DNA of 63,568 nucleotides, filler included, from Collodictyon triciliatum (GCA_043381765.1; 9 parts of 9 records of this genome joined end to end with filler, not necessarily neighbours in it); one strand, 5' to 3'. Shown: positions 12,230-53,699, counted from the first letter of the whole stretch. Notes: generated by a model from the letters alone, not told the origin. Made by a program: numbers and translations.

Positions 12230-12688
12230 TTCTTGTTATTCTTGTTATTCTTATTCTTATTATTGTTGTTTATGTTGTTGTTGTTTATGTTGTTGTTGTT
12301 TTGTTGTTGTGAATTATGCATTTTCTCAATTATTTTCAGGGTTCGGAAACACACCGACATCTAGGTGCGTAGATTCGTATATATCAACTTGTATATTTAA
12401 ATATAGTCGTAATATCAAAATAGGTCTCAAAGCCATTTGTCAAAAATAGACCAATTAGTCTATCCTGAAGCACGGCCACATCATGAGAGCAAAAATGTAA
12501 TTACCATTTCATATATTTCAAAAGTTGAAAGATATACATATTATATTTTCTCTTAAAATTATAATCAACATCACTTACATGTATTTATCATGAAAATTTT
12601 TGAATGCATTCATTATCTCTAATTGCTAGTACTTTATAAAAGAATAAATTGGGTGAACGGTCTTATTCTTTTACAGGATAGAAGATAC

Positions 12689-15030
12689 ATGCCTCTCAGT
12701 TTGTTCAGAAGGTCCACATCACCATCTTTTGCTTCAACAGTCTCCAGATTTCCTGTAATCGATACACATACAACCCTTTTGTAATCATATGTTATCCTCA
12801 TTTATCTACATGGGGGCATGGAACTTTTATGTGATAGTCACTCTCATGCAGAAACAACCACGGAGTATAGCACCAGATCCAGGATATTACGAGTACATGA
12901 TTGAATTGTTACCACGAATATATATACATTTATATACGAAAAAAAAAAGTATTATGAGCTTAATTTTCTCGGAAGGTATTCCAAATCATTATTGGATTGA
13001 AGTAAAAAAATAATAACGAAAAATCAGGTACTGGAAAGCTGATGATTTTGGAACATTACAGAAACAAGACATAGTCAAACTTACCCGCTCAAAAAAGTAC
13101 GTCTGATTATACAAAGCAAGCTGTAACCATTCAATCGAATATATAAGTGTGTTATACAGTGGGACGCAACAGATACATGATTTATTATCCTCTAAACTAT
13201 TATGACCAAGTATAGTTTTTATGAAACAGTTGCTTTCTATTCAATAGAAAACCTCAGAGCCCCAATCAATCAAAAAGCGGATCTCAGAGTGTTTCCACAA
13301 TACCACGGGACTCAACTGAGGAAACAAGCTTCTTCTCGACACCAGGTTCATGGTCATTTATAAGAGTTCCTATACTCATACCCCATCCATTTTATTTAAA
13401 GAGTTACACCATGAAACCCCATTTCCGTGCACCAAATCTCGTAGTCAATTCGATTAGAAGTATCATAACCAATATGAGAGCTTACATCCGCGGTCCTTAT
13501 TTTTGGTGATGTTATTCCTATTCAAAACCTGATGAACCTCTAGATATGATCCACTTGAGAATGAGTTCCAACTTCGCGTCAAGAGTGAAGCGTATGGAGA
13601 GTCCGACAAGGTTTATAACTGACTTTTTCACGGGTGTCCTACCATTTCCTCTATTTTTTTATGCTACCATTCATATAATTATGCAGGCTACAAACATCAG
13701 AGTTTATCGGGCCTGGGACATATCACCATGAAGTTTACCGACCAAAGTCTGCTTCTATCGCACCGTTTGGAAGGCCGGTCAAGGTAGATACAGACGAGGG
13801 ACCAAAGTCTTCATCTCCTGCCAAAAATGTTCATACCACAGGTACGTTATATATAAAATTTTAATTCTATATGAATATTGCATACATGCTCAATTTTTCA
13901 ATTCATTTTCTTCGTAGCAGAGAACAATTATTCTCTATCCATAACATCTCATTACCCTCACTCCCCTTTTTTTCTTCTCTTTTGTATTTCTTTGTATTTT
14001 CTTTACAACATTTCTGTTTCTCTCCACAGAAAAATTGAATCCATCTATTGAGCAGCTTTTAAATCGTGGAGTCAAGGAAGTTACGCCAGAAACTAAAGTA
14101 GCTATACTATGAGCATTTACCAAGAATTTGGTGTTTCTGAAAATTTCAATATTCGACTTCCCTTGCTCCATCTCTTAACTTTGAAAAAGAGAATATACAA
14201 CAATCGCTGATGTAAACTTGTCATCGGTCTGAAAACTTTAGAAAAAACAAAGACCATCCAGCGCGTTCGCCTCAACCACGTCTAGATTTCCAACAACAAA
14301 AACACCTTCCATAGATTTTCGAGGTGTTGAGGAAAACCAGAAAACGTTTAAATCAAAGGTATGATTAATAATTCCGTATGTGGCATATCTTATGAATTTA
14401 CAAAAAAAAAAAAAAAATCCAACCAAACTCATGGATTATTTGTTTGCCCTGTCTGTATTGACAGACTGGGATAAGTGTTCCAGAATTCGTACCATCCAAC
14501 CCAGGAGGACAATTCGGACTTGCCTCACGGTCAAGCAGGGAAGTGATCGTTAATTGCAAGAATGGAGTCCATCTCATAAGGACTTTTTATGCAAATGCCA
14601 CATAACGCGAGCCTTCAGGGTATTAGCTGTAGACTTTGTATTCCCTTTCACCAAGAAGCTGATTATAACTCTACCCTTCCTCTCACCTCGTCTTTCTGTC
14701 TTCCCACGCCAAAGAAATCAAATCATCTTAGAAATGTCTATGCATATAGATAAAATAAATTATTATGAATTTGTCAAAAATAAAATAAAAAAGGAGACCA
14801 AGAAAACCAATATAAATAACTCTTTTATTCTTTTTCTTTCCGGCTGGAACGTTTGTTCGCTTACGGCTCACATTCCCTCCAAGATACGAAATTGAATGCG
14901 CACAAGTTTTCACCGCTATATTCCATCATACAACTAACTAATGAGTTTTTCTCTTCATTCTGTCGCCCTGTTCAGGGTTGTATCTTTTAGATTCTTGCAA
15001 GTAGACCAGGAAGAATATTCTGGGTGATTT
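12689..15030 (+). CDS. STPG/ODF3-like (SHIPPO, PG-rich repeat) protein, multi-exon; 3' end approximate
   Basis: Spliced exons read SPSFASTVSRFP|KQPRSIAPDPGYY, SSNFASRVKR..FIGPGTY, PSSAFASTTSRFP; phases consistent for the first eight exons. Confidence 0.6.
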
Positions 15031-15037
15031 GGGGTAG

Positions 15038-15535
15038 TTTTTTTTCTTTTGTTTTCTTATTCTTCCTTTCAATTTTGTGCAGGATGATAGGAAATGTTGG
15101 CTTTGGTTCGCTAGCCATTGTTTGCACTGATGCTACTTGTTGGCCGGGTGGTGGAGAAGTAGTCGGTAATCAGGAATTGCATCCTGCGACTTGGCCTGTA
15201 GCCTAGGCCTTGTGCTTGCATGAGAGATACAAGGCGAGGTTTAATCTCCTTCTCAGCTTCTTTCCACATATCTCTTCTCACGGGGTCGGAGTAGTAGAGA
15301 ACGTGCAGGTGGCGAAGGAAGCTGTTGAGGAAAGAGATTTGTATGATGTCATTCAGCCCGTTATCAGGAATGGGTGGCTGGTTGTTGAGTCTTGCTTTGC
15401 GTGAGTATATGCGCGCTATCCACATAGTCCATAGCAAATGGCCTCGCGTCACTGCCCAGAATGTTTTTGCATCTGGACGCAGCTGTTGCAGAGGCCCAAA
15501 TATCGCCTGGATTGGGCCAACAGCTGCAGCCGTCT
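15038..15535 (-). mobile_element. 3' end of a non-LTR retrotransposon, family B (copy B1; ORF2 C-terminus ending at 15111, short 3'UTR, A-rich tail), cut by contig end
   Basis: Intronless, GC-richer ORF with LWTMWIAR (resembles the W..W..RN motif of L1/Tx1 ORF2 C-termini); 3'UTR CATCCTGCACAAAATTGAAAGGAAGAATAA recurs at 29227-29278 and 53474-53519 between TSDs. Confidence 0.8.
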
Positions 15536-15635
15536 NNNNNNNNNNNNNNNNNNNNNNNNNNNNNNNNNNNNNNNNNNNNTTAATTAATTAANNNNNNNNN
15601 NNNNNNNNNNNNNNNNNNNNNNNNNNNNNNNNNNN

Positions 15636-18800: not shown

Positions 18801-20151
18801 AAGCACGACAAAAAATTTTTAAAAAAAACGTTACTACTTTTTAAGTCACAAAGTGTAAGTGATGTTAATGTAAAATCTTAATGGCTTTTGTCAAGACTTC
18901 TGATTACTTTTTAAGACACCAAAAGCGTGTGGGGCAACAATGGCAGGGCAGAAAAAGCGCAGGAAGATGAAGCTACTGATAGATACGTATTTTTTTTCTG
19001 GGAAGCGCTTGCTCACTTCTGCTCTTAAATGATTGCATATAATCCGAAACGGTCTAAAAAATCAATTGTTTGAATTAGAATGTCTAATAATGGGATGTTG
19101 ATAAAATAGCAAAGTGGTCTAATAGATGTATGCGATATTGAATTGTGATATAGGTGTGGACTTATTATGGTTGCAATAAGAAAAGAAAAGAAAAGAAAAG
19201 AAAAGAAAAGAAAAGAAAAGAAAAGAAAAGAAAAGAAAAGAAAGCGCCTTATTTAATTAGTATTAATATATCTATTGTCATCTATCATATGTATTGCTGC
19301 TGTAAATATCATTACTGGGGACACTCGTTGATGGAACAAACAATGGAGTCTAGAAATGCTTGCGCCCACATCTTAAGCTCCTTCATGTTAGACTCAATTT
19401 GTTGCTTGTCTTTCAATTTATATGGGTCAATCTAGATAAAGAAAAACTTTTGGCATTCTAGGTATGAAAAAAAAATCGAGATTTAACTTTAAAATTAGAT
19501 GGTAACAGACTCAAGAATAGGATGTTCAAACGTTATTTGCAGTATGTGGTTTAAATACTTCTAGGTTGATATTTCTGGTGCAGATAGTTTGTATATGCTG
19601 CTTCAAAACGGCCTCCAGGTACTTCGAGCCAATCATTCGACTGAAATGCGACAAGAGCTTGCACGACATGCTATTGCTTCGAAACAGAGTATTCCCGCTT
19701 TCTGGTGTATCATCATGAAATTGATGTAAATATATAATGCAACACGCTATAATGATGGTTCATATCGGAATCGATGCAGCCATATCAACCTGTTACTGCC
19801 ACCTCCCTTTTGACCGCAACTTTAATCAGGCGGATGCTATCATCGTATCTGGTTTGGTAATACATAATTCATTGAAAATAAGAAAACATTCAAATTGTTT
19901 ATTTTACTTAGGAATTACATTCTCAGGCCAGGGTGGAGGAAATATATCAAAAGCGGAAAAGTGCATAAACCTCTGAAATACACGAACAAGTGCCTTCGCC
20001 ACTTCCTCGGACTCTGTTACAGGGACAACTCGACAAAGGGCAGTTGCCAGGATTAGATCAGGAGCCAAAAGAACCTTTCCATGTTTGTAACATATTATTA
20101 CAAGATAGATAGCATTATTAAACACAATAATCAAGCATTATCATTATCATG

Positions 20152-22064: not shown

Positions 22065-22268
22065 TGTGGATAAACAAGAGCGAAGTGTCTTAAACGAGCA
22101 TAAATCCTAAAACGAAGAGAATAATTCAATACGGCCTCAATCAAACACTTTTTGTGGAAACTATCATAATTTAATTATCATGCATTACATTAAGGGTATT
22201 GTCGATATTATTTGCTGAATTAGTGGTATATATATACACAATTGTCATAAATATGTTTTCTCAAACAC

Positions 22269-22293
22269 CTTTGAATCGAATAAAGGAAAAAAA
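22269..22293 (+). mobile_element. LINE family A 3'-end remnant (copy A4, 25 bp)
   Basis: CTTTGAATCGAATAAAGG(A)7 between perfect 16-bp repeats ATGTTTTCTCAAACAC (22253-22268, 22294-22309). Confidence 0.9.
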
Positions 22294-22571
22294 ATGTTTT
22301 CTCAAACACAAAATCGAGATTGGGACTTGGCGGTTCGGAACACACCCAGGAAGTCTCAAATAGACACAGATTGCAGGTATAAATAGCGCTAGGCAACCAG
22401 GCCATATCAGTGCCATCAAAGCAATATGGTTCGCACAGAGTAAAGCAGAACAGCAGAGGCAGGCGATTATTGCGAGGGATGAGGTAGATTAACGACACGT
22501 ACCCCCCAGAGATTACAAGCTGAAGTTTTTTTTTCTCTATATTCAATCCACAGTAGGTGTCAAAAAAGAGA

Positions 22572-23346: not shown

Positions 23347-23446
23347 NNNNNNNNNNNNNNNNNNNNNNNNNNNNNNNNNNNNNNNNNNNNTTAATTAATT
23401 AANNNNNNNNNNNNNNNNNNNNNNNNNNNNNNNNNNNNNNNNNNNN

Positions 23447-23551: not shown

Positions 23552-23592
23552 CATCATATTTAGCGTTACTGATTAAATGGTAACAAATAAAC

Positions 23593-23614
23593 TTTGAATC
23601 GAATAAAGGAAAAA
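23593..23614 (+). mobile_element. LINE family A 3'-end remnant (copy A5, 22 bp)
   Basis: TTTGAATCGAATAAAGG(A)n between perfect 18-bp repeats AAATGGTAACAAATAAAC (23575-23592, 23615-23632). Confidence 0.9.
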
Positions 23615-23716
23615 AAATGGTAACAAATAAACAAAGAAAGAAAAGGACTAAATCGAAGGAAATGCCTCTTCATTCACATTTCAATTCACACCAGATGTAT
23701 GAGAAGTGATAAGTTA

Positions 23717-26700
23717 CCGTCAGCGTATTTCATTCTGCCTTTTCCATGGCGCTGCAAATACATATGTTTTTTTTTTTTTTTTTAAAAAAAAGACAGTGAC
23801 GTTATATATATATTTTATAAGATTCATATATTTTTCTTGCCATAAAATAAAGAAAAGATGTAAATTGGTGTTTACCAGCCCAATATGAAATTCGCCATTG
23901 TACACGTCTCCGTTGGCATATTTATACTCCGAACCCCGAGTATCTTTTGAAATTGATCAATAAGTATATATCATACTATGGTCGATATTTAACCAAGGCT
24001 ATTATTCTTGACGTCAAATGGAACAAAGAAACAACGATGGCCTTCAAAGTAATTTTGGGTTACCCTCTAGTCCCAATTCGTTTAATCTCTCCGTAAAGTG
24101 GCTCAAAAGCTGGAGTTTGGCGTCCAATACAAGGAATTTAAGAGAGTAAACAGACTCTGGGTCTCGAAGAATGAGTGAGAACTGCTTTTCATCTAATAAA
24201 AAATATATAAACTTAAATCATGAACTATTATTGAAAACACAAATAAAAAGGCAGGAGAAAATACCAAACCTTGGCTATATTCAGATATCCACACATGGTT
24301 TAAGTTGATTTGCTTCAGAATGGTTCGGCCTAGTTTAAAAATCATTTTGGGGATGATTTTTCGCTAGAGTTGTGGCAGGTGATTCATGAAGGAATAAAAA
24401 TACATACGAAAGCATACCTGCACAGACAACGATGATATCTGAAAATACAATAACGGTTCCTGGGCCGACTTCGTTATTCTGTTCGGCACTATGAAATACG
24501 CAAAGTGTTGTTTTTTATTTTATATATTTTTTTCATCGACAAAAGTATGAGCCCGTCCTTGAGCAGTTGGGATAAAGTTTTTACTCATCGAATAGAATGA
24601 CAGATGCCTCCCCAATATAGTGGCGTGAAGGAAGAAAAAGCGTCTGATGGTTTGTTGGAAATGTGTAAGAAACAACTGGACAAAGAACGATGACAAAGGT
24701 AATCATGACGAGATTTAAAAAATAGAAGTTACATCGCAGTATTTCCATACCTCAAATCCTTCAATTTTGCCAATCTTATCACGAATATTAGATGTTTTTA
24801 TTTGCCTAATTCGATATTCATTAGTATTTCAGCAATATATGATGCATACCACATAGTTGAAGTGGGCTATTTTTATCTCCTATTTTTCGGTTCGTTCAAT
24901 ATAAAGCGTAATCTAAAGGCGACTTGTTTGTTATCATCGCGGTCTTTTTAATTATCTCGATAGCTTGTTGCAGGTCCTACCAACAGATGAGCATAAAAGA
25001 AAACAGACGTTACAAATGAATCAAAGGAATCATATGATAAAGAGAGACAAAATATAAAAATATAAAAATATTGTTTTCCTTTATTCGATTCAAAGAAAAT
25101 ATAACAAAATATAACAAAATATAACAAAATATAACAAAATATAACAAAATATAACAAAATATAACAAAATATAACAAAATATAACAAAATATAACAAAAT
25201 ATGATATAATTAAATGCCAGGATACTTAAAACAAAGGAATACACTAATTCTATAGTACATTTCGCTAACATACATAAAAATCCGGGTGTTCATGGGGAGT
25301 TGATTTTGCGAGCTCCTAACGTTGCACCAATATACTTTAGAATAAATCTATTAAGATTCGAATCATAAATTCCGGGTGCGATAATTTCATTTTCACCTCC
25401 AAGAGCAATTTATATCGCGGAAGTCTTTGCACAGGCTGAATAAGAAAGGATGGCAAATCGAGACTGGATGACTGTGGGTCCTTGAGACACTCCTGCATTT
25501 CATTTGAATCAAGGTTAAAATGTAACTAATTGTCTCTTCGTTTTTGTTTCTAATTATATTTTTAAATTACAGCCATTATCCTGCTAAATAGGTAAATGAG
25601 CAATAACCTTCAAAAACTGCGAATACGAAGCATGTGACGAGCACTTCTTATATGTCTCCAAGGCATTCTCAAAGTTGTCTACATATCCGCTGTAAATCTT
25701 GAGAAAGTGTTGCTATTTCGAGAGTATTTCTCTTAGTGTATTCTGAAGCAATTATTTCACCTTCCGTGAAAAGAAGTAACAAATATTATTATTATTATTA
25801 TTATCATTATTATAAAATAACTCTAGCCTTACCGCTTTTATAAAAATATGCCCAATTTTCGATTCATAGCTCAGTGATTCAGCAACTTTATGAAGCTCAG
25901 GCAAAATGATTTCCTAAGCAATGCACATTTTAAAGAATCAACAAGAAAAAAAAGCATCCTTTAAATGTTGACTTAATAAACATATTTGGCATAAAACCCA
26001 TTCGTGTTAGCTAAAAATATAAGGTTTGATGGATTCGATGGGGTTTATGGCTTAAACAATTTACTCACAAAGTGTAGCTTAAATATTGACTCGAGTAAAT
26101 AAAAAATAGATCTATTTAATTTTTTATTTTAGATTTAAGCAAAGATGCGAAACAATAGTTAATAAATGCTTTGCTTCCATAGAAATTATACATCGCATAT
26201 GATAAAGTCACATAGTAATCATTGCAAATCAAACTTAATTTCTTCCTCAGAGATTATCTTCTTTGAATTAGCAAGCCTTCGTTTCAGGGGCTCCATGTGT
26301 TTCTTAAATTGAGATAAAATCGCCTTTTGTTATGATTAATTTATTCATATCGGTTGGGCATGGAACATCGGTAATGAATCGATCGAAACCTCTAGCACGA
26401 ATTTCAGATTTAAAACGTAAGTTTTTTCAGTAGAGTACAGCTCTTTGATGACATTCCTTCTCTTTAATTTCATTCGTTGTTTCCTTGCATCTTCCTCGGA
26501 TTGTTCTAAGATAATTTCGAAATATTCACATATTCCTTGGTAAATTTATCGTATTCATTTAATTCCGAAATGGAGGATTCAAAATTACGCTTTGTTTCCA
26601 GTTCCTGTTGCAGAATTAATTCTTGCTCTTCTCGGAGGCGTTTCATTTTCTTCTTCCAGGGTTCAAACTAAAATTCCATAGTATGAGAAAAGAGAAAGGA

Positions 26701-29700
26701 CATCGATGTGGCATTACAGTTAGTAAATCATAAAAATAAAAAAAAAAGAAGAAAAAAGTAAACCATAATATTGAATATTTCATTTAAACGAAACATATGA
26801 AAAATTAAAGCAAACTTCCCCAAGGTTGAGTGTAGCCATTTTTGATCCAGTTTCAACAGTCTCAACTAATGTTTAATGAGTGATTCATTAATTTTTTTTC
26901 TAAACATAGAATTCGGAAACTGAATATTATAAGAATAAAACAACATCACATTAAACGAGCTCATAGTATATCTCATTACTTGTAAACAAGGTATCTTGTT
27001 GCGATAAAAACTCAGCCAAAGGACCGTAAGTTTGCCCATACATAGACAACCATTTTGAATCTGAGTGACATATATTTATGATAAAATACCACTAAGCAAA
27101 TGATTTTTGGTATATCTTGTCAAGTCGCTTAATTTAATATGATATTCTGAAATATATTTAGCACATTACATTAAAATTTCAGCAAAAAAGATAGGCAATA
27201 TTCTGAGAATTTTGCTTACTCGTTAGCTCATAAAAACGAGAAGCTAGTTCTACGGTGTACATTTTTGAGTCTACAGCACGTTCTTGCATAATTCCAACCA
27301 ACACAAGTACCAGTTCTTCAAGAAGAGGGTCATATCTGATAAAAAAATCCATTCAATGGTAGTTAATTCATTACGGGGCAGGTTTGTGCAAATGTATGAA
27401 CAAAAAATAATCAAACATTGATTAGATCTTAGATAAAGCCATTCTTATTGTGATATTAATTATTGCATATACATGATTTCGTCATAATGCTCAAGATGGT
27501 CGCTCAGATTAACGGCATCCTATGAGTATAATAAGTTTCGAAAAGGCTGATAAATATAATTGAGTCTGGATTCAAATCAAATGAAGCTACGTACCACGCA
27601 CTCTGATATTTCTACCGTAGTTTGAAAATGTTCTCTAATAAAAAAATATTCAAAGCTTAATGCAACCACATCAGTATACCTGCCAATTTTTATTCAGTAC
27701 AAAATAAAAGACGCTTAAATTCGAAAGAATATTCATAAACATACTTATGTATTGTAGATTCCTGTTGATTCGATAAGACCTGCTAATGTTTGGATAAATG
27801 CTGTCAATACTCGACGTTGTTGTTATAATATTTGAACTTTAAATAATTCAATTATATTTATTGCATAAATAGTACTTTTCTTTCATAAACGAAAAATAAA
27901 CCTCATCAATTCCAGCACTGGTATTTACAGGCTCGTCATTATCTATCACGTATTATCGAAAGGTTTTGATATATATCACTTAGTCCAATTAACTCGTATA
28001 CAATTTGTATAATAAATATTTATGTATTTTGACTCACGATGAGGTTTCAAATCACCAAGCAGGTCTTCAGATATTTCGTTAGGATCAAANNNNNNNNNNN
28101 NNNNNNNNNNNNNNNNNNNNNNNNNNNNNNNNNNNNNNNNNNNNNNNNNNNNNNNNNNNNNNNNNNNNNNNNNNNNNNNNNNNNNNNNNNNNNNNNNNNN
28201 NNNNNNNNNNNNNNNNNNNNNNNNNNNNNNNNNNNNNNNNNNNNNNNNNNNNNNNNNNNNNNNNNNNNNNNNNNNNNNNNNNNNNNNNNNNNNNNNNNNN
28301 NNNNNNNNNNNNNNNNNNNNNNNNNNNNNNNNNNNNNNNNNNNNNNNNNNNNNNNNNNNNNNNNNNNNNNNNNNNNNNNNNNNNNNNNNNNNNNNNNNNN
28401 NNNNNNNNNNNNNNNNNNNNNNNNNNNNNNNNNNNNNNNNNNNNNNNNNNNNNNNNNNNNNNNNNNNNNNNNNNNNNNNNNNNNNNNNNNNNNNNNNNNN
28501 NNNNNNNNNNNNNNNNNNNNNNNNNNNNNNNNNNNNNNNNNNNNNNNNNNNNNNNNNNNNNNNNNNNNNNNNNNNNNNNNNNNNNNNNNNNNNNNNNNNN
28601 NNNNNNNNNNNNNNNNNNNNNNNNNNNNNNNNNNNNNNNNNNNNNNNNNTCCCCGTGTCGTTCTTTAAATGCTTTCTTCCATCTGAAATCAGTTATATCC
28701 TTAAACTTATCAGCCAGTTCCAAATCTGATAATCCATCCTTCTCACCATGAATTCTAAATATTTTTGCAAATACTTGAAGCAGCCACTGCTCGTTCATTA
28801 TTTTGTAGTTTACAATCTTTTTGTTTTGCTTTGGATGGACGCCAGTTGGATCCTTCTGTTCCTTGGAACTTACGATGGGTGCATCCAATCCTGTTTCATG
28901 GGCGTTCATAGAAAGCTGAAGTGACTTTCTCCTTTGGTTCAAGATTGTAAATGTCGAGTTTCGGCGAGTGTTGGGACTGGACACCTCCAAAGACGTAGAT
29001 GTACTTGATGATAAGTTAAATACTGCTGACTCTGGAATCTCGACACTCAAGAGCTCAAAGTTAGAGGAGAACGACCCACGTAAATCAGATTGCCCGTCTG
29101 AGTTGAATGACCGAGACTTGCTTCGGTTGCGTTCAATTGGAATATCCGGGCCTACCGATATTTCAAAAGGAAAGGCCAGAAGTAAATTAGAATAAAATAT
29201 AAAATGGGAGATTTATACGATTAGTTTTTATTTATTCTTCTTTTCAATTTTGTGCATGATGGTGGATATGTTGGCTTTGAGATTTATACGATTAGTTAAT
29301 TGTAAAGAGAACACACTCGCAAAGATACATTTAATAGATTTATTTTTAACAGATTTCTTATTTTTCACCCGCACCGAGCTCTATTTCGTGGATGTCGTTG
29401 AAATATTTTTGAGAGATGCCGTAGTCTCCTCCAAAAATATACCTTACCATCAGAATTTATTGTTTAAAAAGTACTTAAAAAGTGATTGAAACAACTTTGC
29501 AAGATTGTGTGAATGACCTGTCCCTAGGAACTTGAAACCATTACACAAACTCTCTAAAAATACATAATTGAGATCGATGGATGACAAATTAATTGGGATA
29601 TACATTTTGCCTTGATGAAGCACGGCGCTGTGTCCACTTCTTGGTTGAGGCATGTTTTGTTCAGTAGCTTTCAAATTGACCTTTTCCCATGCATTCGTTG

Positions 29701-31152: not shown

Positions 31153-31252
31153 NNNNNNNNNNNNNNNNNNNNNNNNNNNNNNNNNNNNNNNNNNNNTTAA
31201 TTAATTAANNNNNNNNNNNNNNNNNNNNNNNNNNNNNNNNNNNNNNNNNNNN

Positions 31253-31371: not shown

Positions 31372-31577
31372 TTTTCATCATATCGGTTCATAACAGTCAT
31401 TTTAACTCTGGTCGGTGAATTGTGCAGGGCGCGGGTATTTTAAAATTAAAATTTCTGTGTGGTTCTTATACATCATTGTATTCTTGCTTTTCAGGTCACA
31501 TAGTAGGCTTTAAATATAAACAAGTAGAAGTACCGCTGATTTTTTGTCAATAATTCAAGGTGAACCTATTTTTTCGT

Positions 31578-34500
31578 ATGGGTGCAAGTAATTCATCTCC
31601 TGAGAAGCGTTTACCCAACTCTCAGGTGGGGTTGGAGCCAAGCTCGAAATATTCTCCTTCAACAGTTTCGTCTGTGGGCTTGATGCAGCAATCATCAGAA
31701 GACCAATGTTTTCTTCTCCAAAAACCGCAGATAGCCCATCAAAAAGCGTATAACTCTTACGACACGCTTGCATCATCAAGAGCAGTTGCAAATGCTCAAA
31801 GTGTAATACCACCTCAGTCATCATCGCAGCAAAAAGCGTATACTTCTTATGACACACTTGCATCATCAAGAGCGTCTACAAATGCACAAAGTGGGATGCC
31901 ACCTCATCCATCATCGCAACAAAAAGGGCATACTTCTTACGACACACTTGCATCATCGAGAACAGTTGCGAATGCGCAAAGTGGGATGCCACCTCATCCA
32001 TCATCGCAACAAAAAGGGCATACTTCTTACGACACACTTGCATCATCAAGAGCGTCTACAATTGCACAAAGTGGGATGCCACCTCAGTCACCATCGCAGC
32101 AAAAAGGGCATACTTCTTACGACACACTTGCATCATCAAGAACAGTTGCGAATGCACAAAGTGGGATGCCACCTCAGTCACCATCGCAGCAAAAAGCGTA
32201 TACTTCTTACGACACACTTGCATCATCAAGAGCAGTAACAAATACACAAAGTGGGATGCCTCAAAATTTCACATCAGACCATGAAAGCAAAAAAGAAATT
32301 CGAGATGCTGAAACAGGCTCTATCTCGGTACTAGTAAATCGCAGAATGGAAGTAGATATCGACGCCAGTGGAAATAGGAAAGCAGGCTCCGCAAACACAC
32401 AAGCGACTTCTAGAGCCGTCTATAAAAAAGATCTACGAGATAACAAACATGGCCAAGTGGAGGACAAAAAGGATAAAGGAACAAAGTACACCGACGATCA
32501 AATTACAGTGAAAGATTCAAGCTCGATGAAATACACAGGTGATGCCTCAGCCAGTCTTACTGCGTTATTAGATATCGAAGAGGAGGGTTCCCTTGTCCAT
32601 TCAAAGGAAAGTTCAAAAAGCAATACACTTTGGAGAATTAATAAGCCTTTTCGGCACCATGGTGATATTAAAATCTTTGTACGATTACTTGGTGAAGAAA
32701 AAGATAAAGAATTGCTTTTAGATGATTTTAACCGTAGGACAAAACAAGCATCTGAGAACCTTACAGTGATATTAGATGCTAGAATAACCATTGAAAAAGG
32801 TGTAAGCCTACAGTCTGTTTGCTTTTTTACTGTGATTGTTCCTTTTTGTGCCTTTATTGGAGACAAGAACCTACAGAATTCTCCAATGAGAAAGCAGGTG
32901 GCTTATTTGAACAATTTAGTGTTAAGCGATGGAACTTTCGTGGAAAAAATATTCAATGTTATATCTCAGTTGAGTTCATATCATTCAAGAGACAATATAC
33001 CAGGATTTTTGGAGTACAAAAGGTACAATAGCGGTGCAAACTTCAGTGATGTTATCATACCAATATTAGAAGTATGCGATGTGTACATGAAAAAAGTGTC
33101 GGATTCAGCAGCAAATCAAATGATATTTAAATGGTTTGACTCTATGAATGCGCTAATATTGAGTTGCAATGGGAGTTTAAAGTTGCAGCGCCTTTTGAGC
33201 GATTTACAAAACCTCGCTCGGATATCTCAGCCAAAAAAAAGAGTTCAAAAAACAGAAGTTCGTAGGGAAGGTACAGTCTATGATGAATCGCTGGTAATAG
33301 TTCCGATGATTTCGTCTGAGGGCCCAGGTCAACTGAGACTCAAAGGTCCGCGCCATGATAACGACTATGCTGACTTTAGAGAAATAAGCATCATGCCGAC
33401 TCAAAATGAAATGCTGTGTGAATTGTACGACTACTTACCGCATCCAAATCGGCCCGATGGAATTTTAGCCACAGAAGAAGACACATATTTGGACAGACAG
33501 TTTCGTTTAATGAGACACGATATGACAGCATCCATTCGCAAGACGGCACAACTATTAATGCAGAATTTAGCAAAGTTCACAAGCAACCCAAAAGCGACGC
33601 ACAATATATCTGGAATCGTGGATGATGAAAAGATTACATTATCGCTTTTTCGAAACGCTCAATTAGTTGAAGTAGTTGCACGTAATAAGAAGCTGCAATG
33701 TGTTGTCAAAATCGAACACCCAGTACAAGCAGGAGGAAAAGGGGATGAAAAATCTAGTGTTTTTTGGAAAAGCGCAGTAGGCAGTAAATTGCTAGAACAT
33801 GGACAGCTAGTTGTAGTTGTCCTAGGAATAGTTAATTTGCCATCAAATGGAATCACCTACGAAAATATGTTATTTGCAAATATCTCTGGTGATCCAAGAA
33901 TAGATAAAGCAGGAGTCGAGTTGTCGCTGGACTTTGTGAATTCAAAAGAAACATTCAACTATCTTGAGTACTCTACACATATCAATGCATTTAATAGCAC
34001 TAAAAAATGTGTGATTGCTGTAACTCGTAATAACAACGTAGAAATATACCAACCGATTCTCAAATGCTTAAAATCAATGACACATATGGATATACCTTTC
34101 TCTTCCATTATTTGCCACGAAGATTCTGATGATATTTGGCAATCGCCATTATACAATACAGGAAACAGTTTCGCAATCGTCAAGTCGATTTTCAATGACG
34201 GACAGCCCAGAAAAATACCTTTGAGATCTTTTGAAGAACTCAGAAATTACCTTTTTGACCTGCGAGATAAAATAAATCTAGATGATACACAAATCGAATC
34301 ATATGCCATAGGGATGACTAGAAAAATCGGGTTGATACAAGGACCACCAGGCACAGGGAAAACCTACGTCGGGATAAAGCTGATAATGAGTATGGTTGAA
34401 AATAAAACCTTCTTGAAATTAAAACAAAAAAGTCACACAGTTAGAGGTGTGGTAGACTCGTGGGAAGGTTGGACACAATCAGATCCGAAGCTGCCAATTT

Positions 34501-37500
34501 TATGTATTTGCTACACAAACCATGCCCTAGACCAATTTTTGGAGGGTCTTTTAGATGCAGGAGTGCCTTTGGATAAAATTGTAAGAATTGGTAGCCGAAG
34601 TAAGAGTGAAAGATTAGTTCCTTGCAGTTTATTAAATATCAAATCAGTTAATGCGAAAGGAAGCGACAGATTATTTCGCCGGTTTTTTGCTATCATGAAA
34701 GAAGCAGAGAAAAGTTTGTTAAAATTCATTGACGGAATGAAGGATATGGACAGATTGCTCTATCAATACCTGAACACCATGGAGGATGAAACATTCATAT
34801 CCTTGTTTCCCGATGAATTAATCAGTGCTATTGTTGAATTGAATGGAAAAAAAGAAGCAAAACCAAACGAAAAAGAATCACGCCCAAAATTACTAGATGT
34901 CGAGGAAAAAACAAAAAGTGCAAAAGAAGGGCTATTCTTAGCTTGGACGAAAGGACATGCCTTGGAAGATGTGTTCAAGGAATACAGTGAAAATCATAAG
35001 CTGATTCTGGATCAACTCGAAAGGAAGGCTAAATTATATATATGGAAGACAACCATGAGGGAGAGGAAATTAATAATTGACAATTGGTACCTTTTGACAA
35101 ATGAATGGAATAAGAACGAATTTTCTCGACTTTTCTCTGCATACGAATCAAGTACAACAGACCTTCGAAATTATGAGAATAAGTTTAATTATGAGTTTTT
35201 AAAATCATCATATATCATCGGGGCAACCACGTCCGGATGTGCTAGATTTCACGATTTGATTAGAAGTATCAGTCCACAAATAGTTATGTGCGAAGAAGCC
35301 GGTGAGGTTTTGGAAAGTCACATCATTTCATCCATATCCCAAAATGTGATGCAGTTGATTATGATAGGAGACCATCTGCAATTGCGCCCAAAGATTAATG
35401 AACATGGATTATCGATGGACCATGCTTCAAAATATGGACTGGATATGTCTTTGTTCGAAAGACTAGTTCATAGGTATGAGAAATTAAAGCGGTTGAATCG
35501 ATTAGAAAATAGAACTTTTCTCACCACGATGGACCAACAAAGAAGAATGACGCCTAGTGTATCGAGTTTGATAAGGAGTACACTCTATCCAATGCTTAGA
35601 GACAGCATAGAGGTGACAAGATATCCCCTTGTGGAGGGAATGAAGGAAAGATTATGGTTTTTTAATCATACAAACAGAGAAGATGGATACAATTGTTCAG
35701 GAAGTATGGCAAAGTCAGCCTCTAATTCTGCCGAGGCATTCATGATTGTAGAGTTGTTGAGGCATTTAGTCCGACAAGGTTACGCCTCAAATGATATTGC
35801 AATCCTAACTCCTTATCTTGGACAGCTTTTCACAATCAGAAAAATGCTGCAATCACAAAATATTCAACTCTACCTCAACGACTTGGATTTGAATGACCTC
35901 AGTAAATATGCAGAGGATGAAAAGGACCTCTCTGAAGATTCTGACGGTGATGAAACCGAATCTGAAGATGAAAGTAATAGCGAAGAGGAAGAAAACAGAG
36001 GAGCACCAAGGAAATACGACGATAATTCTGATTGGATAGAAGTGCATAAAAAATCTGGGAAGGAAAAAGGCAAGAAGAAAAATAAATCTAAGCTCAAGCT
36101 CGTAAACAAGAATATGAAAGATAGTGCAAGATTGGCTACTGTAGACAACTTTCAAGGGGAAGAAGCCAAAGTTATCATTTTATCAACAGTGAGGAACAAT
36201 CCTGATGGCCGTGTTGGCTTTCTGAGAGTATTCAATAGAGTTAACGTCATGCTCTCAAGAGCTAAGCATGGTATGTATATCCTTGGGTCTGTGAGTACAA
36301 TTAGAGCGTCCAAGAAGGCGGTCATGTTCAACCAGGTTATTGATGAAATGGAGAGGAATAAGAAAGTTGGTTCATATATAGAGCTGTATTGTCAAAGGCA
36401 TAAAAAAGAGTGTATTGTTACAAAGCCCCAAGATTTCAAGACATATGCCCCCGATGGTGGCTGTGATGCGTTGTGTGACTACGTTCTAAAATGCAGACAT
36501 AAGTGCCCGAGGTCGTGCCACCCTGATGACATTCACCATGAGGCTACTATATGCAAAGAAAAGTGTAGCAAGGCATTGACATGTGGACATCCGTGCCAAA
36601 AATACTGCTCCGAGCCTTGCGGTCCGTGTAATGTGTTTGTCCCATTCACAAATAAATGCGGGCATCATTCGAAGATTAAATGCCAACATTTATTTAAAGG
36701 AGACGAGGTACCTTGTTTTGAAGAAGTCGACTTTGTAAATCCCTACTGCAAGCATATCATGAAGATAACGTGCGAAGAATCACAGAGCCTGATGGAAATG
36801 TTCGAAAATCTATCGAATATGGAGATACCTTTATTTAAGGAGCAGTTCAGCAAAACTCATGCTTTATTCTCGTGCAAAGCAGAGTGCGGAAAGATTCAAG
36901 AGGAATGCAACCATATTTGCCAAGGTAGTTGTGGTTCATGCTTTCACAAATCCTGTGAGAGTTCACACTCAATAATCCCCAAAAAGATATTTCATGCGAG
37001 CAAATGCAAAAGCAAGTGTTTAAAATCCATGATATGTGGTCACTCCTGCGCTAGTGAGTGCCATAAATCTCAAGACTGTCCTCCGTGCCAGAAAAAATGC
37101 GTTACAAAGTGTGAGCATTTCACGTGCAAGCAACCATGTGCAACTTTGTGCAACATCTGCCCAAAAGAATGCGATTGGTCTTGCAAAGGAGAGCACCCAA
37201 ACAAGAAATCATGCAATCTTCTATGCGCTATGCCATGCGAGAGGCTTCCTTGCGACGAAAGATGCCCCGAAATACTCAGCTGTGGGCATCGATGCCCAAC
37301 AGTATGTGGAGAGCCATGCCCCACTTCCCAATATTGTCAACAGTGTGGAATTCACAAAGAAGATGTGATTGACATGATTGGAGGACAAAAATACAAAGAA
37401 GTGAGTTTGGATGAAAGCAGGATTTTGGTTTTGGACTGTGGACATTTGTACACTGTTGATTCTCTCGACATGACTTTTGGCATCGGTAACTTTTATGAGC

Positions 37501-38663
37501 ATGATGGCCAGAGCTGGGTAGCAATCAAGGAGGTTTCTGCATTACATGATTATCCGGTTCTGCGGTGCCCGGGTTGTCAGGTTCCATTAAAAAAAGTAAA
37601 AAGGTACGGACGAATCGCTAAGCATGAGACCTTGTTGTATTCACAAAAACAGTATCTCTTGAGAGAACAAGCCTCAGTCGAGAAATTGAGGAAAGATGTC
37701 GTAAATCATACAAAACCAAAGAAACAAAAAAGAAAAGGTGGAAAACAAAAGACAGATAGTAGCGAGAATGATATCAACTTGGTTGAGATTTCTAAAGAGC
37801 TGTCCAAAAACCAAACGATTTTAAGAAACATTCCTCAAAATTCTCCTTACGCAGCGTTCCTTAAAAGCTACGATATAAGAAAAAGATTGCTGGGAATCAA
37901 AGGAGACTCCATAGAAATAGAATCAATTGTGATGACTTTGAATCAAGTGCGCGGGCAAACACTAGAGTGTTGCATCGAAAGGATAAGGTATTGTCTCGAA
38001 AAACTTGCTGTTGCGTTGAGATCCAAACTGCAAAAAACCTCAACCGATTCAGCATTAGTAAATCCCGAAAAGTGTGAAGCTCCAAAGATAGACAAAAGTA
38101 GTGGCAGCAGAGCACAGGAAATTCCTATCACAGCGGAAAACATATTGCAGATGATATCTGACATTCTGGAATCACAATATTCGGATATGATGCAAGAATT
38201 GGAGTCATTTTGTCAGGAGAAGAAACTTTTTACCAGAGTTTGCTCGACAAATTTATCATTTCTAGTACCCATGCTAAAAATACAAGAGGAATTGCGCCAA
38301 TCGGCACAGCTTACTTCAGGTCTCAACCAACAAATTGAGAGTGTGATACAACGAACATATCTAATTCGTTTAGGACTATTGCACAAGATTTCGTTGGACA
38401 ATACGTCTATGTCGAGGGAATTCAGCTTACTTTGCCGTGAAATGACAGAGAAAATTAAAGCATTGAGACCTGCAGGGTTGACAGAGAAGGATTTCGAAAC
38501 AATAGCAAAAATAATAGACAAAAGGTTCAAAAAGGAGACCAAAGCGTTTGGAGGAAGGTGGTTGCGATGTCCTAACAATCACACCTATTGCGTCTCTTCG
38601 AAGTCTGCAACGGTGAAGAAAGAAACGTTTTGCACAGAATGTGAATCGGAAAGCGCCGTCTGA
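31578..38663 (+). CDS. ZNFX1: ZNFX1-like SF1 (UPF1-like) RNA helicase with NFX1-type zinc fingers, RING-like region and C-terminal RZ-like finger; single exon
   Basis: GPRHDND..DFREISIMPT..E, YLDRQFRLMRHD, IQGPPGTGKT, CYTNHALDQFLE, IIGATTSG, EEAGEVLESH, IGDHLQLRP, SLFERL, TVDNFQGEE, RVNVMLSRAKHG, repeated C.H.C...C fingers, LDCGH..CP.C..RYG, WLRCPNNH..C..C. Confidence 0.92.
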   Translation: MGASNSSPEKRLPNSQVGLEPSSKYSPSTVSSVGLMQQSSEDQCFLLQKPQIAHQKAYNSYDTLASSRAVANAQSVIPPQSSSQQKAYTSYDTLASSRASTNAQSGMPPHPSSQQKGHTSYDTLASSRTVANAQSGMPPHPSSQQKGHTSYDTLASSRASTIAQSGMPPQSPSQQKGHTSYDTLASSRTVANAQSGMPPQSPSQQKAYTSYDTLASSRAVTNTQSGMPQNFTSDHESKKEIRDAETGSISVLVNRRMEVDIDASGNRKAGSANTQATSRAVYKKDLRDNKHGQVEDKKDKGTKYTDDQITVKDSSSMKYTGDASASLTALLDIEEEGSLVHSKESSKSNTLWRINKPFRHHGDIKIFVRLLGEEKDKELLLDDFNRRTKQASENLTVILDARITIEKGVSLQSVCFFTVIVPFCAFIGDKNLQNSPMRKQVAYLNNLVLSDGTFVEKIFNVISQLSSYHSRDNIPGFLEYKRYNSGANFSDVIIPILEVCDVYMKKVSDSAANQMIFKWFDSMNALILSCNGSLKLQRLLSDLQNLARISQPKKRVQKTEVRREGTVYDESLVIVPMISSEGPGQLRLKGPRHDNDYADFREISIMPTQNEMLCELYDYLPHPNRPDGILATEEDTYLDRQFRLMRHDMTASIRKTAQLLMQNLAKFTSNPKATHNISGIVDDEKITLSLFRNAQLVEVVARNKKLQCVVKIEHPVQAGGKGDEKSSVFWKSAVGSKLLEHGQLVVVVLGIVNLPSNGITYENMLFANISGDPRIDKAGVELSLDFVNSKETFNYLEYSTHINAFNSTKKCVIAVTRNNNVEIYQPILKCLKSMTHMDIPFSSIICHEDSDDIWQSPLYNTGNSFAIVKSIFNDGQPRKIPLRSFEELRNYLFDLRDKINLDDTQIESYAIGMTRKIGLIQGPPGTGKTYVGIKLIMSMVENKTFLKLKQKSHTVRGVVDSWEGWTQSDPKLPILCICYTNHALDQFLEGLLDAGVPLDKIVRIGSRSKSERLVPCSLLNIKSVNAKGSDRLFRRFFAIMKEAEKSLLKFIDGMKDMDRLLYQYLNTMEDETFISLFPDELISAIVELNGKKEAKPNEKESRPKLLDVEEKTKSAKEGLFLAWTKGHALEDVFKEYSENHKLILDQLERKAKLYIWKTTMRERKLIIDNWYLLTNEWNKNEFSRLFSAYESSTTDLRNYENKFNYEFLKSSYIIGATTSGCARFHDLIRSISPQIVMCEEAGEVLESHIISSISQNVMQLIMIGDHLQLRPKINEHGLSMDHASKYGLDMSLFERLVHRYEKLKRLNRLENRTFLTTMDQQRRMTPSVSSLIRSTLYPMLRDSIEVTRYPLVEGMKERLWFFNHTNREDGYNCSGSMAKSASNSAEAFMIVELLRHLVRQGYASNDIAILTPYLGQLFTIRKMLQSQNIQLYLNDLDLNDLSKYAEDEKDLSEDSDGDETESEDESNSEEEENRGAPRKYDDNSDWIEVHKKSGKEKGKKKNKSKLKLVNKNMKDSARLATVDNFQGEEAKVIILSTVRNNPDGRVGFLRVFNRVNVMLSRAKHGMYILGSVSTIRASKKAVMFNQVIDEMERNKKVGSYIELYCQRHKKECIVTKPQDFKTYAPDGGCDALCDYVLKCRHKCPRSCHPDDIHHEATICKEKCSKALTCGHPCQKYCSEPCGPCNVFVPFTNKCGHHSKIKCQHLFKGDEVPCFEEVDFVNPYCKHIMKITCEESQSLMEMFENLSNMEIPLFKEQFSKTHALFSCKAECGKIQEECNHICQGSCGSCFHKSCESSHSIIPKKIFHASKCKSKCLKSMICGHSCASECHKSQDCPPCQKKCVTKCEHFTCKQPCATLCNICPKECDWSCKGEHPNKKSCNLLCAMPCERLPCDERCPEILSCGHRCPTVCGEPCPTSQYCQQCGIHKEDVIDMIGGQKYKEVSLDESRILVLDCGHLYTVDSLDMTFGIGNFYEHDGQSWVAIKEVSALHDYPVLRCPGCQVPLKKVKRYGRIAKHETLLYSQKQYLLREQASVEKLRKDVVNHTKPKKQKRKGGKQKTDSSENDINLVEISKELSKNQTILRNIPQNSPYAAFLKSYDIRKRLLGIKGDSIEIESIVMTLNQVRGQTLECCIERIRYCLEKLAVALRSKLQKTSTDSALVNPEKCEAPKIDKSSGSRAQEIPITAENILQMISDILESQYSDMMQELESFCQEKKLFTRVCSTNLSFLVPMLKIQEELRQSAQLTSGLNQQIESVIQRTYLIRLGLLHKISLDNTSMSREFSLLCREMTEKIKALRPAGLTEKDFETIAKIIDKRFKKETKAFGGRWLRCPNNHTYCVSSKSATVKKETFCTECESESAV
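31740..32262 (+). repeat. Coding tandem repeat, 90-bp / 30-aa unit, about six copies
   Basis: CAAAAAG(C/G)G..TAC starts recur at 31740, 31830, 31920, 32010, 32100, 32190; unit QK(A/G)(Y/H)TSYDTLASSR....AQSGMPP...SQ. Confidence 0.95.
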
Positions 38664-38957: not shown

Positions 38958-39057
38958 NNNNNNNNNNNNNNNNNNNNNNNNNNNNNNNNNNNNNNNNNNN
39001 NTTAATTAATTAANNNNNNNNNNNNNNNNNNNNNNNNNNNNNNNNNNNNNNNNNNNN

Positions 39058-39164
<107 letters not shown>

Positions 39165-39183
39165 AGGAAACAACCACAACCAG

Positions 39184-41652
39184 ATGAGCTTCTCCGGGCT
39201 GCGAGACTCCCTGGCGCTGTCCTCTTCGCGACACTACGCAAGCGACCACCTCTGCACAGACGACAACAGCGACGCCGTCCACGCCTCCTTTGCCGACCCG
39301 GACAGCGAATCGCCCCCAAACGCCGGACGCAGCCGCCCCCGCAAACCGGGCCTGACTCTGCCCTCCACGGGCGAAGGCGACGCCTCCAAACCGCTCTCCA
39401 TGTCCACGGCCGTGACTCTCGCTTCTCCTCGGCCGATGACGACGGGCGACTCCGACCGCTCGTTTGCCACCGCACTTGCCCCAAAGACACCTTCGAAGGA
39501 CCCCGAAAGCGCAGAAGGCTCGGACGCCTCCGACGCAGACGGAGATTCGGACACCGACCATCACGATAATCACGATCGCCTTCCGGTCCGCGTGCGCCCT
39601 GCGCAATCGCAGCCTCATCAGACTCGCGCCCGCACAGCTTCTGAGCAGCAGGCGCAGTCGCAATCGCATGCGAATCTTGGAAATCCAGAGTCTGCAGTGC
39701 CGCCGGATCAGAGGCTGAGAGCCGCGTCCAATGCGCAGATATTGCCGGGATCACACGGATCACACGGATTACACGGATTACACGTTGCTGGGAGGGATTC
39801 GGTGCTGCCTGAAGTGGACATGTTTGAGGACTTTGTCAGGCTCGAGACAAACTCGCTGCCTCTGCCGCTCCATCCAAAGATTAAAAAGAAGCTCGAGAAG
39901 CATCGTCTCAAGTATGAGGTATGAGCTGTGTTTATTTGTAAAGATTCGTAAATTATGTTTTAGGGGCAACTGCATTTTTTTTTTTGGTTGTAGAGCATAT
40001 AATAAATGCCCTTTGCTCTTACTCATTTTCTTCTTATTAAATTAGAAAAAGTATGCAAAAAAGAGTAAGCACATGCTAAAGACCGCTGCGAAGCAGTTGC
40101 AAAAAACAAAGAGTCCTCAGTTGGACGTTTCAGATGCCGAGCTGAGCATGATTCCGTATCAAATATTCGAGTGTACATTTCTTGTTGAAGTAAATCTAAG
40201 CAATAATAAGGTAAATGTACGGTTGAAAGTGCAATTATGTAGTCTGATAGCTTCATCCTCTACCGACAATATACCATTCTATATGTTATTTTTTGAGACA
40301 CTGTGGTAATGATTAGCCTTTGCAATCATAGTTATCTTCCATTCCTGAAGCAATCTCATCCTTGAACCTTCTCGCCTCTCTTCATCTCGGCCAGAATGAA
40401 ATTACTGAGATTCCTCAGTCCATAACATCCCTGATGCATCTCACATTCATCGATCTCTGTTCCAATAAGTTGGTTGCAGTAAGTCCTTGTTTATATAACA
40501 AGAGGAGAAAAATACATCAAAATAAGATACCATCTTTATTTCTATGCATGAATTCTTTTTTTTTTCCCCTTATCTTTTCTCCGATATCTTATTCTGCTGA
40601 TTGTAGCTTCCAGAGTCCATTGGTGCACTTAACCAATTGAATGTACTTCTCATCAGACAAAACAAAATCGAATCCCTCCCACAGTAAGTAAATCGCATAT
40701 TCTCGCAACCGTGCACATACGAAGCCCCAAATGCCTGTTGATTGCACTCTGGCAAAAAAAAAAAAAAAAACCTTTTCAAACCCGATGGCCATTGTATAAT
40801 AGTCTATTTCATTATATGAAAATACAAGAGAAAGATTATCTTTCAATAATTTTTATTATTAAAAATAAAAAAAAAGTAAAAAATACATTTTGATCAAGCC
40901 CTATATTAACATACCTTTTATTGCAATCTATGACCTTTCTATTATCTCCTAGTTCTCTAAAGCACCTCAAAACGCTGCAAAAGCTTTCTGTCCGCTCCAA
41001 TATGCTCCAGATTGTATCGGACGAGGTTTGCGGAATGGAAGGTATCGCGCTCTTGGACATGCGCTCCAATCACATAAAACACGTCTCTCCGGCCATCGGA
41101 AACCTGCGCCATTTAAAGTATCTCGACCTGGGCAGCAATCGACTGTCCGACCTACCAAAGGAGCTTTTCCGTTGTCCAAAGATTCAGTATCTCAACCTGT
41201 CCCAGAACAGTTTCAAGGCACTCTCACCTGATATTACAAATCTAATGACCCTTGACACTATCGACGTGGAAGGGAATCAGATTGTCTCTATGCCTGACTC
41301 CCTGGGAGTCCTGACAAACATCCAGAATCTCCATCTAAGCTACAACTCACTCACATCGATTCCGGATTCGATAGGGTTTCTGCACAAGCTTCATGCTTTC
41401 CATGCAAACAATAATCTAATCGGAAAACTTCCGCACACATTTTCGAGACTGACTTGCCTAACCGTCATGAATATAAAATTCAATCGGTTAAAGGCTTTCC
41501 CGGAGAACACCGGTGCATTGACAGCCTTGCAGGAGCTGTATGCAACAGATAATGAAATTGAAAAGTAATCATTTATGATATATATGCCTTTGCGTGCATG
41601 AATACTTTTTCTTTGTAAATCGTTTGGTTAGTCTATTATCCTAACATTTACT

Positions 41653-48674: not shown

Positions 48675-49393
48675 TTAGAGGCGGATGTCCACGGTCTTCT
48701 GGCAGCTCTCTCTCCCATAGCAGCCTTGCTGAATAGTTGGGGCAAAGCCGATGAGGCGAGTGTTGTAGCCGTTGCGCTCAGCGATGGTGACAAGCTGGTT
48801 GTAAATCTCGGGCGAGATAGAAGGTGTGCGGGAGATCATCCACAAGGCCAGGCGGCAAGGCTCACCGACAAGAGCGTAGCCGTAGTCACGGTCTGGGCCC
48901 AGGGCCATGATGTAGTAGTTTGGAATGGTGGCTGGAGTGCCAGTGAAGCTCACAGCGAGCTCTCCGGGCTTTGTGGGGTCCAGCTGGTCAGCGCGGCCAA
49001 ACACAACGCTTAATTGCCCGTCAACGGTCTTCTTGCGGCACTCGTTGCGGACCTCCACGTAGGGCCCGTTGCGGTCCGAGGTCAGAGTGTAGTTTGCGTT
49101 GGAGCAGACGCAGTCAATCTGGAAGTTGGAGCGGACGTAGCCGCTGGTGGCAATCTCGTACCAGCGGCCTGGTTTGGGAAATTGACTTAGGTATGTGACA
49201 TTCACCATGTGTTCGGCTTCTTTGCACGCAAATGGGCGGTGATGCTACTCTTTACTAAATCTGCAGACTTACCAGAGTATCGGTTGAGGTCGACTTCGGG
49301 GACAGAGTAGAGTGGGGTTGTGCAGAACTGGGCAAATGCCGCTTGCGAGAGGACGGCGAAGGCGAAGAGGACAATAACGGCAGTGCGGGACAT
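48675..49393 (-). CDS. Secreted lipocalin (apolipoprotein D / Blc-like), one intron
   Basis: Signal peptide; VDLNRYSG|RWYEIA, C..ANY, V.V.NEC, L.VSF, Y.I..L..DY.YALVG, LW.ISRTP. Confidence 0.92.

Positions 49394-51163: not shown

Positions 51164-53699
<2,536 letters not shown>

Follow-up and report, generated by a model that had tools for sequence, protein, structure and literature searches.

The enzymes of several mobile elements are known to dock on sliding clamps. PCNA co-purifies with human L1 ORF2p and retrotransposition needs PCNA (PMC10830420, PMC5371812), with PCNA binding itself reported to be required for L1 retrotransposition (PMC10830420). A consensus PIP sequence of human L1 ORF2p is located between the endonuclease and reverse transcriptase (RT) domains at residues 404-419, where it adopts a helix that packs onto the RT palm and fingers (PMC10830420). 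A study of 2025 predicted, and tested, a PCNA contact via a non-canonical wrist surface, the 'PUB' motif (PMC7617806). The manner in which human L1 ORF2p contacts PCNA is in dispute, the PIP sequence being buried on the one account versus a contact through the wrist surface on the other. The portion of a 2017 review at hand describes PIP boxes in the pogo, Tigger, Lemi1 and perhaps Ac transposases, the internal box of L1, and motifs for the beta sliding clamp in the bacterial proteins Tn7 TnsE and IS1634 transposase, with IS200/IS605 discussed alongside; that portion contains no mention of a C-terminal box in a non-LTR element (PMC5371812). No prior account of a C-terminal PIP box or degron in a non-LTR element was retrieved from the full-text literature outside subscription journals, in agreement with a sequence-only reading of the DNA described here, which had known of none.

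The window, by which is meant the whole stretch of 63,568 nucleotides that was analysed, is eukaryotic DNA with a G+C content of 26-46% in 2-kb windows. It contains host-gene fragments with intron-like interruptions that belong to the actin family, cyclin, SF1 helicase, LRR, PP2C, kinase, RasGAP, kelch and lipocalin. The window consists of ~4-8 kb pieces, each assembled separately, that are linked through eight joints of the form N44-TTAATTAATTAA-N44. The joints are located at 7723-7822, 15536-15635, 23347-23446, 31153-31252, 38958-39057, 46765-46864, 54562-54661 and 59410-59509. Features that reach a joint are cut by assembly and not by biology. LINE fragments are found directly at two of the eight joints (15535 and 54561), as if repeats broke the assembly.

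Three other regions of the window were recorded. An unbroken frame of 2,369 codons at 31554-38660 (+) is unusually long, the other genes of the genome appearing intron-split; besides an SF1 helicase core (AAA_11 and AAA_12), it encodes tandem repeats of ~34 residues (YTSYDTLASSR...QQK) near the N-terminus and, around 37033-37365, a stretch rich in Cys. One open frame at 48678-49244 (-) encodes a lipocalin of bacterial type (Lipocalin_2, E 1.2e-27) and lies within the 2-kb window of highest G+C (0.456). The stretch at 39058-39921, richer in G+C and straight after a long A/T run at the piece start, has open frames on both strands in several phases (169-288 codons) that gave no Pfam matches.

Identity of the reading frame

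The ORF with the PIP tail is located at the extreme end of the second piece (7823-15535). On the minus strand its frame is open between the end of the piece (15535) and a TAG stop (15113-15111) and encodes 140 residues, designated P0001. Positions 15179-15144 (-) translate to QFLITDYFSTTR, 22 residues ahead of the stop. The span had earlier been given as 15111..15452, but the frame runs on to the piece end at 15535. The copy belongs to a family designated B, and a second family, A, is also represented in the window. The features are as follows.

15111..15535, minus strand: family-B LINE ORF2, 3' end, from translation, with the C-terminal domain, a probably flexible tail and the TAG stop; 5' side cut by the joint at 15536
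15156..15179, minus strand: PIP box QFLITDYF; Q, I, T, D and both aromatics kept among six subfamilies
15144..15155, minus strand: STTR, the four residues that follow the PIP box (+1 to +4); with Arg at +4 (15144-15146) the PIP-degron consensus is complete
15040..15110, minus strand: short 3' UTR and A-rich tail of family B; the 3' end recurs at 53474-53523 and 29226-29278
8257..8533, minus strand: family-A coding copy of 277 bp, 5'-truncated, with an in-frame stop; tblastn match to P0005, E 4e-05
8382..8405, minus strand: family-A PIP box QLPITDFF, then PVLA, with position +4 lacking a basic residue
53836..54561, minus strand: L1-like RT fragment at a piece end; Pfam RVT_1, E 2.2e-26

An exhaustive phmmer search of 1.84 billion representatives with P0001 yielded eight relatives at E <= 0.001, and a profile search of 90% clusters yielded eight relatives among 2,493 candidates. 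The relatives comprise 20 members in eight clusters, all on environmental contigs of 2.2 kb or less, and may derive mostly from one host lineage. Six subfamilies are distinguished, with 23-53% identity to the family-B proteins P0001 and P0014 over the shared part. Residues 288-427 of P0014 (427 aa) are 88.6% identical to the 140 aa of the window, and in P0014 one unbroken frame links a CX2CX8HX4C zinc knuckle with the tail that P0014 has in common with the window copy. The knuckle of P0014 was identified as Pfam zf-RVT (PF13966) with an E value of 3.1e-08 and a score of 34.6 bits against the cut-off of 27.5, and zf-RVT scored over the Pfam cut-off in all four proteins scanned (P0014, P0019, P0021 and P0008). 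A single frame extends from knuckle to tail in P0014, P0015 and P0017 (family B), P0011 and P0021-24 (C), P0005 and P0020 (D), P0004 (E) and P0008 (F). The CX2CX8HX4C motif is invariant in the alignment of these relatives (A3); the corresponding region of the window copy falls beyond the piece end. No Pfam family was found with the 140-aa fragment of the window alone. The profile of A3 retrieved no PDB sequence below E 0.1, a weak RNase H row appearing at E 0.12, and a protein-atlas look-up of P0014 returned generic eukaryotic zf-RVT clusters only.

The AlphaFold model of P0014, for which the 12 rows of A3 were the input alignment, is poor overall, with pLDDT of 66-88 in blocks across residues 250-400. 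Foldseek against PDB found nothing at E <= 0.001, the L1 ORF2p row having E 0.29 and a probability of 0.77. On realignment the model, at its mean pLDDT of 54.9, matched human L1 ORF2p (8uw3_A) with Z 10.9 and an rmsd of 3.7 A over 170 residues, pairing residues 188-396 of the model with residues 1080-1266 of the chain. The runner-up was also human L1 ORF2p (9hdo_A, Z 9.9), and the next unrelated row had Z 5.8. The PIP box is at residues 406-413 of P0014, approximately 10 residues past the last fold-aligned residue. It lies in a region (401-427) of pLDDT < 50 with a short helix at 403-410, in a model that is without the RT part. The sequence and the model together identify the ORF as the C-terminal domain of an L1-type LINE ORF2 protein, because the sister copies contain zf-RVT in frame and the fold matches that of L1 ORF2p. 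The earlier assignment of this ORF to the 3' end of a LINE ORF2 is upheld by these two lines of evidence and by the A-rich tails and target-site duplications described below.

The search for longer proteins with P0001 produced P0002 only, an upstream walk with residues 1-210 of P0014 again produced only P0002, and no relative passes the region before the zinc knuckle. Scans of metagenome contigs gave 125 pattern matches with P0001 and 107 with A3, none of which was confirmed by tblastn, and no Exo_endo_phos domain (APE-type endonuclease) was found in the 150 window ORFs scanned. The RT fragment at 53836-54561 had its best PDB sequence match with human L1 ORF2p (~4e-27) versus 5e-15 with R2, a similarity by which L1-clade RTs are judged to be present in the genome. 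It gave no tblastn match to the tail-bearing proteins, and nothing found ties it to family A or B. The frame of this fragment stops 23 codons past the YADD active-site motif and is followed by AT-rich non-coding DNA, and a 50-bp insertion of the family-B 3' end is located ~300 bp beyond it on the opposite strand. The fragment may be a broken or rearranged element.

Insertions, copy number and environmental occurrence

Insertions of both families were found elsewhere in the window between direct repeats. The duplications that flank the family-A coding copy are included in the list.

8241-8256 and 8534-8549: 16-bp target-site duplication of the family-A coding copy at 8257..8533
22269..22293, plus strand: 25-bp insertion of the family-A 3' end; 16-bp duplications at 22253-22268 and 22294-22309
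23593..23616, plus strand: 24-bp insertion of the family-A 3' end; 16-bp duplications at 23577-23592 and 23617-23632
29226..29278, minus strand: 53-bp insertion of the family-B 3' end; 18-bp duplications at 29208-29225 and 29279-29296
53474..53523, plus strand: 50-bp insertion of the family-B 3' end; 14-bp duplications at 53460-53473 and 53524-53537

Perfect target-site duplications of 14-18 bp, A-rich ends and variable 5' truncation, the marks of target-primed reverse transcription, were present in these five copies. In a public sequencing run of a single organism (X6), 216 contig pieces aligned to a 496-base stretch of the family-B locus with a summed depth of ~700-4500. The element is judged from these sequences to be mobile and multi-copy because of the target-site duplications and the copy depth in X6. 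The very short insertions are real, with 24, 25, 50 and 53 bp between their duplications, and therefore the last few dozen bases suffice for priming. Each consists of a LINE 3' end and an A-run. LINE copies truncated at the 5' end are usually much longer, which suggests that in this host reverse transcription is aborted very early or the template is released early.

The 63 kb contain six copies of a 17-nt core from the 3' end of family A, on the plus strand at 3644-3660, 12207-12223, 22270-22286 and 23593-23609 and on the minus strand at 8265-8281 and 25078-25094. The cores at 12207 and 25078 are within or adjoining microsatellite arrays. A-rich arrays resembling the family-B tail were observed at 54700-55100, 19175-19243 and 6518-6620. 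The tails of these LINEs may seed, or target, simple repeats.

DNA near-identical to the family-B tail was present in 20 public runs from 16 studies, mostly metagenomes of freshwater or lake water; pieces were also found in subsurface and wetland metagenomes and in metatranscriptomes among the 20 runs. Either the host or a set of organisms closely related to it seems to be widespread in fresh water. Metatranscriptome contigs from a poly(A) library (X16) and a random-primed library (X15) gave partial cover of the locus, with none over the motif region at 15125-15209. Presence in an RNA library is not proof of transcription.

The C-terminal PIP box

The window copy (15179-15144) matches both a strict PIP pattern, Q-x-x-[ILM]-x-x-[FY]-[FY], and the full PIP-degron consensus, here Q-x-x-[ILMV]-T-D-[FY]-[FY]-x-x-x-[KR] (PMC8871960). 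Chance expectation was estimated by scanning the window and 100 block shuffles in six frames. The plain strict pattern occurred 15 times versus a mean of 9.19, the form containing TD twice versus 0.01 expected, and the full degron pattern once versus 0.0 expected (0 in 100 block shuffles). Both TD-form matches, at 15179 and 8405, are LINE ORF2 tails. The full PIP-degron pattern claimed for this family-B C-terminus is thus present in the translation.

Of 26 sequences in hand, 19 reach the tail. The tails of the six subfamilies read as follows at the aligned position, with the residue at +4 given last.

Family A: QLPITDFF PVLA, +4 A
Family B: QFLITDYF SATR, +4 R
Family C: QTVITDFF AV[PS]R, +4 R
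Family D: QTAITD[FY]F AVLH, +4 H
Family E: QSVITNFF SIIP, +4 P
Family F: QYFNTPFF YYSK, +4 K

The strict PIP box is present in 14 of the 19 tails and in five of the six subfamilies, the exception being family F, which has N and P at positions 4 and 6. The TD form is found in 12 of the 19 tails and in four of the six subfamilies, family E having TN and family F having TP. Outside the tail, none of the 26 sequences contains a strict PIP. The five tails that fail the strict pattern are P0003 and P0006, which diverge in an indel-like manner at or just after the box, P0019, which diverges before it, P0023, which has Leu at position 7, and P0008 of family F. Most of these look, from their sequences, like decayed copies. 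Frameshifted or decayed copies, as expected of a transposable element, are P0002, P0018, P0019, P0006, P0003 and P0025.

Pairwise identities were calculated with one representative per subfamily (six, or five for the folded part). The six defined positions of the PIP box (1, 4, 5, 6, 7 and 8) are identical in 71 of 90 comparisons (78.9%), and the two free positions within the box in only 2 of 30 (6.7%). The linker ahead of the box (33 columns) has 20.0% identity, the residues behind the box 19.0%, and the folded domain of five subfamilies 41.1%. The linker between fold and box varies in both sequence and length. By this signature the motif resembles a short linear motif under selection, with constraint confined to the consensus positions and drift in the flanks.

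These values bear on the reading that the box has no function and is a chance match retained through the recent common descent of the copies. Many copies are indeed close relatives, and plain PIP patterns are frequent by chance, with 15 in the window versus 9.19 expected. However, subfamilies with only 23-47% identity elsewhere keep the box in place, with the free positions and flanks at 7-20% identity, and two boxes of the TD type were found, both in LINE tails, with 0.01 expected per window. Absence of function is therefore considered very improbable.

Constraint at the level of RNA, such as a 3' recognition signal overlapping the coding tail, was also considered and is rejected. The boxes of families A and B differ synonymously in the codons for Ile (ATC/ATT), Thr (ACT/ACC) and the last Phe (TTT/TTC), and, by the insertions of 24-53 bp, priming does without the coding tail in cis; because of both, the constraint is taken to act on the protein and not on the RNA. 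Run X6 has 40 listed differences and twelve more outside the listing; of those listed, a single one is inside 15144-15179, and the Arg codon has none. This difference (15152 T>C) changes Thr at +2 to Ala, as in other copies; the Thr of the window copy is a minority letter, the other family-B copies having Ala. The variant pattern lends weak support to constraint on the motif, and contigs drop rare variants.

The tail is a probably flexible extension of ~30 residues past the fold, in which the only conserved feature is the canonical, high-affinity-type PIP box Q-x-x-I-T-D-[FY]-F, located 7-14 residues from the stop codon across the lineage. The reading that we prefer, with a probability of roughly 60% judged from the sequences, is that the exposed C-terminal box docks ORF2p of this L1-like lineage on PCNA. 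The conservation of the box points to selection for clamp recruitment in this kind of L1-like retrotransposition. Through its tail, ORF2p would be tethered to DNA-loaded PCNA during target-primed reverse transcription, and docking could help the enzyme to reach suitable 3' ends, at forks or at nicks. Alternatively, docking could recruit clients of PCNA for RNA removal, second-strand synthesis and ligation of the insertion.

As human L1 illustrates, fitting the consensus is not in itself proof that a LINE protein docks on PCNA by this sequence, because the PIP sequence of human L1 is a packed helix and PCNA is placed on the wrist; the tail described here could likewise fold back on the RT. The corresponding alternative is that the motif is not a ligand of PCNA and either packs on the body of ORF2p or binds another partner that reads FF, such as a Rev1-type or mismatch-repair hub. 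The structural helix that the human L1 consensus PIP forms on the RT, with PCNA predicted elsewhere, is a precedent, and the short helix at 403-410 in the model of P0014 would be compatible with packing. Against this alternative, the full canonical set is kept (Q, the aliphatic residue, TD and two aromatics), which goes beyond FF, and the linker to the fold varies in sequence and length at 20% identity. The extreme C-terminal location is also typical of PCNA clients. A role of the motif without PCNA is considered unlikely, and docking on PCNA remains the preferred reading.

The degron signature and comparison with known clamp-docking systems

The family-B box was earlier proposed to be a PIP degron that might explain the extreme 5' truncation of insertions. 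In this proposal the tail would dock on chromatin-bound PCNA, CRL4-Cdt2 would recognise it, and ORF2p would be destroyed while on DNA, with the consequence that copy number is limited or reverse transcription cut short. A PIP degron needs a basic residue at +4, and a basic residue at +3 also matters in human cells (PMC8871960). The full consensus (TD with K/R at +4) is found in 8 of the 19 tails, the window copy and seven others, and +4 is K/R in families B, C and F and His in family D. The motif is in a probably disordered tail, as in known substrates, and the one X6 difference listed within 15144-15179 leaves the Arg codon intact.

Several results argue against this proposal. The basic residue is missing at +4 in family A (Ala), as previously noted for QLPITDFF-PVLA at 8382-8405 (-), and in family E (Pro), and the family-B copy P0007 has Leu. 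K/R at +4 is found in three of the six subfamilies and the full consensus in only two (B and C), while a basic residue at +3 is found in no copy. The TD pair also simply raises affinity for PCNA, as in the high-affinity form of the box, and there is no evident reason for a selfish element to keep a self-destruct signal. A degron that limits copy number or reverse transcription is consequently considered improbable. The earlier interpretation survives in part: the PIP box is kept across copies and, with the deviation of family F, across subfamilies, and the full degron consensus is not. Judged from the sequences, what selection has kept throughout the lineage is the PIP box; the degron signature belongs to subfamilies B and C and may or may not be of consequence. 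Among the window ORFs scanned, none was found to encode Cdt2, DDB1, Cul4 or PCNA.

The proposed link to 5' truncation is not supported, because both families have short insertions, although +4 is not basic in family A. Those of family A are in fact the shortest, at 24 and 25 bp versus 50 and 53 bp in family B. Few copies enter this comparison, and family A is represented by a single tail, from a decayed copy that has a stop in frame. The family-B ORF of the window is cut by a joint and therefore its shortness is uninformative on 5' truncation.

The narrower possibility that the box of families B and C is a working PIP degron, by which PCNA-loaded ORF2p would be ubiquitylated by CRL4-Cdt2 at the integration site and removed, is considered doubtful at best. 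If true, a B or C element would time the destruction of its own enzyme to the moment of DNA engagement, and its protein would be the first known from a mobile element to use the replication-coupled degradation pathway. Families A and E, natural variants that lack the degron consensus, would be built-in controls, and sister subfamilies with and without the basic +4 residue allow a clean test of PCNA-coupled proteolysis of a retrotransposon enzyme. Docking of ORF2p on PCNA, if true, would have wider consequences, in that an independent L1-like lineage would be evolutionary evidence that clamp docking is generally required for L1-type integration and is met in various ways. The eight-residue tail is a simple experimental handle that can be deleted, mutated or transplanted.

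Among the closest systems already described is human L1 ORF2p, with which the lineage has in common an L1-type ORF2 and a matched fold of the C-terminal domain, PCNA being a required host factor for L1. The PIP sequence of human L1 is internal and packed on the RT, and the PCNA contact has lately been assigned to a non-canonical wrist surface, whereas the box described here is of the canonical TD type and at the very C-terminus, on an extension of ~30 residues past chain residue 1266 where the fold alignment ends. The substrates of CRL4-Cdt2 (p21, Cdt1 and Set8) resemble the tail in the TD PIP box, in K/R at +4 (families B and C only) and in a terminal region predicted to be disordered. They differ in being host cell-cycle proteins, whereas in the LINE lineage +4 is variable, +3 is not basic and the degron is a prediction from sequence. 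In pogo, too, the box is C-terminal. The pogo, Tigger and Lemi1 enzymes of transposition are alike in having a canonical PCNA-binding box (PMC5371812), which is a predicted one here, but they are cut-and-paste DNA transposases and not RTs; there is no protein homology, and the likeness would be convergence. Tn7 TnsE and the IS1634 transposase are likewise of mobile elements that dock a clamp via a Q-x-x-L-x-F-like peptide (PMC5371812), although the clamp, the enzymes and the domain of life are different. The PIP tail of this L1-like lineage, as read from its sequence, would extend the known theme of mobile-element enzymes docking on the sliding clamp.
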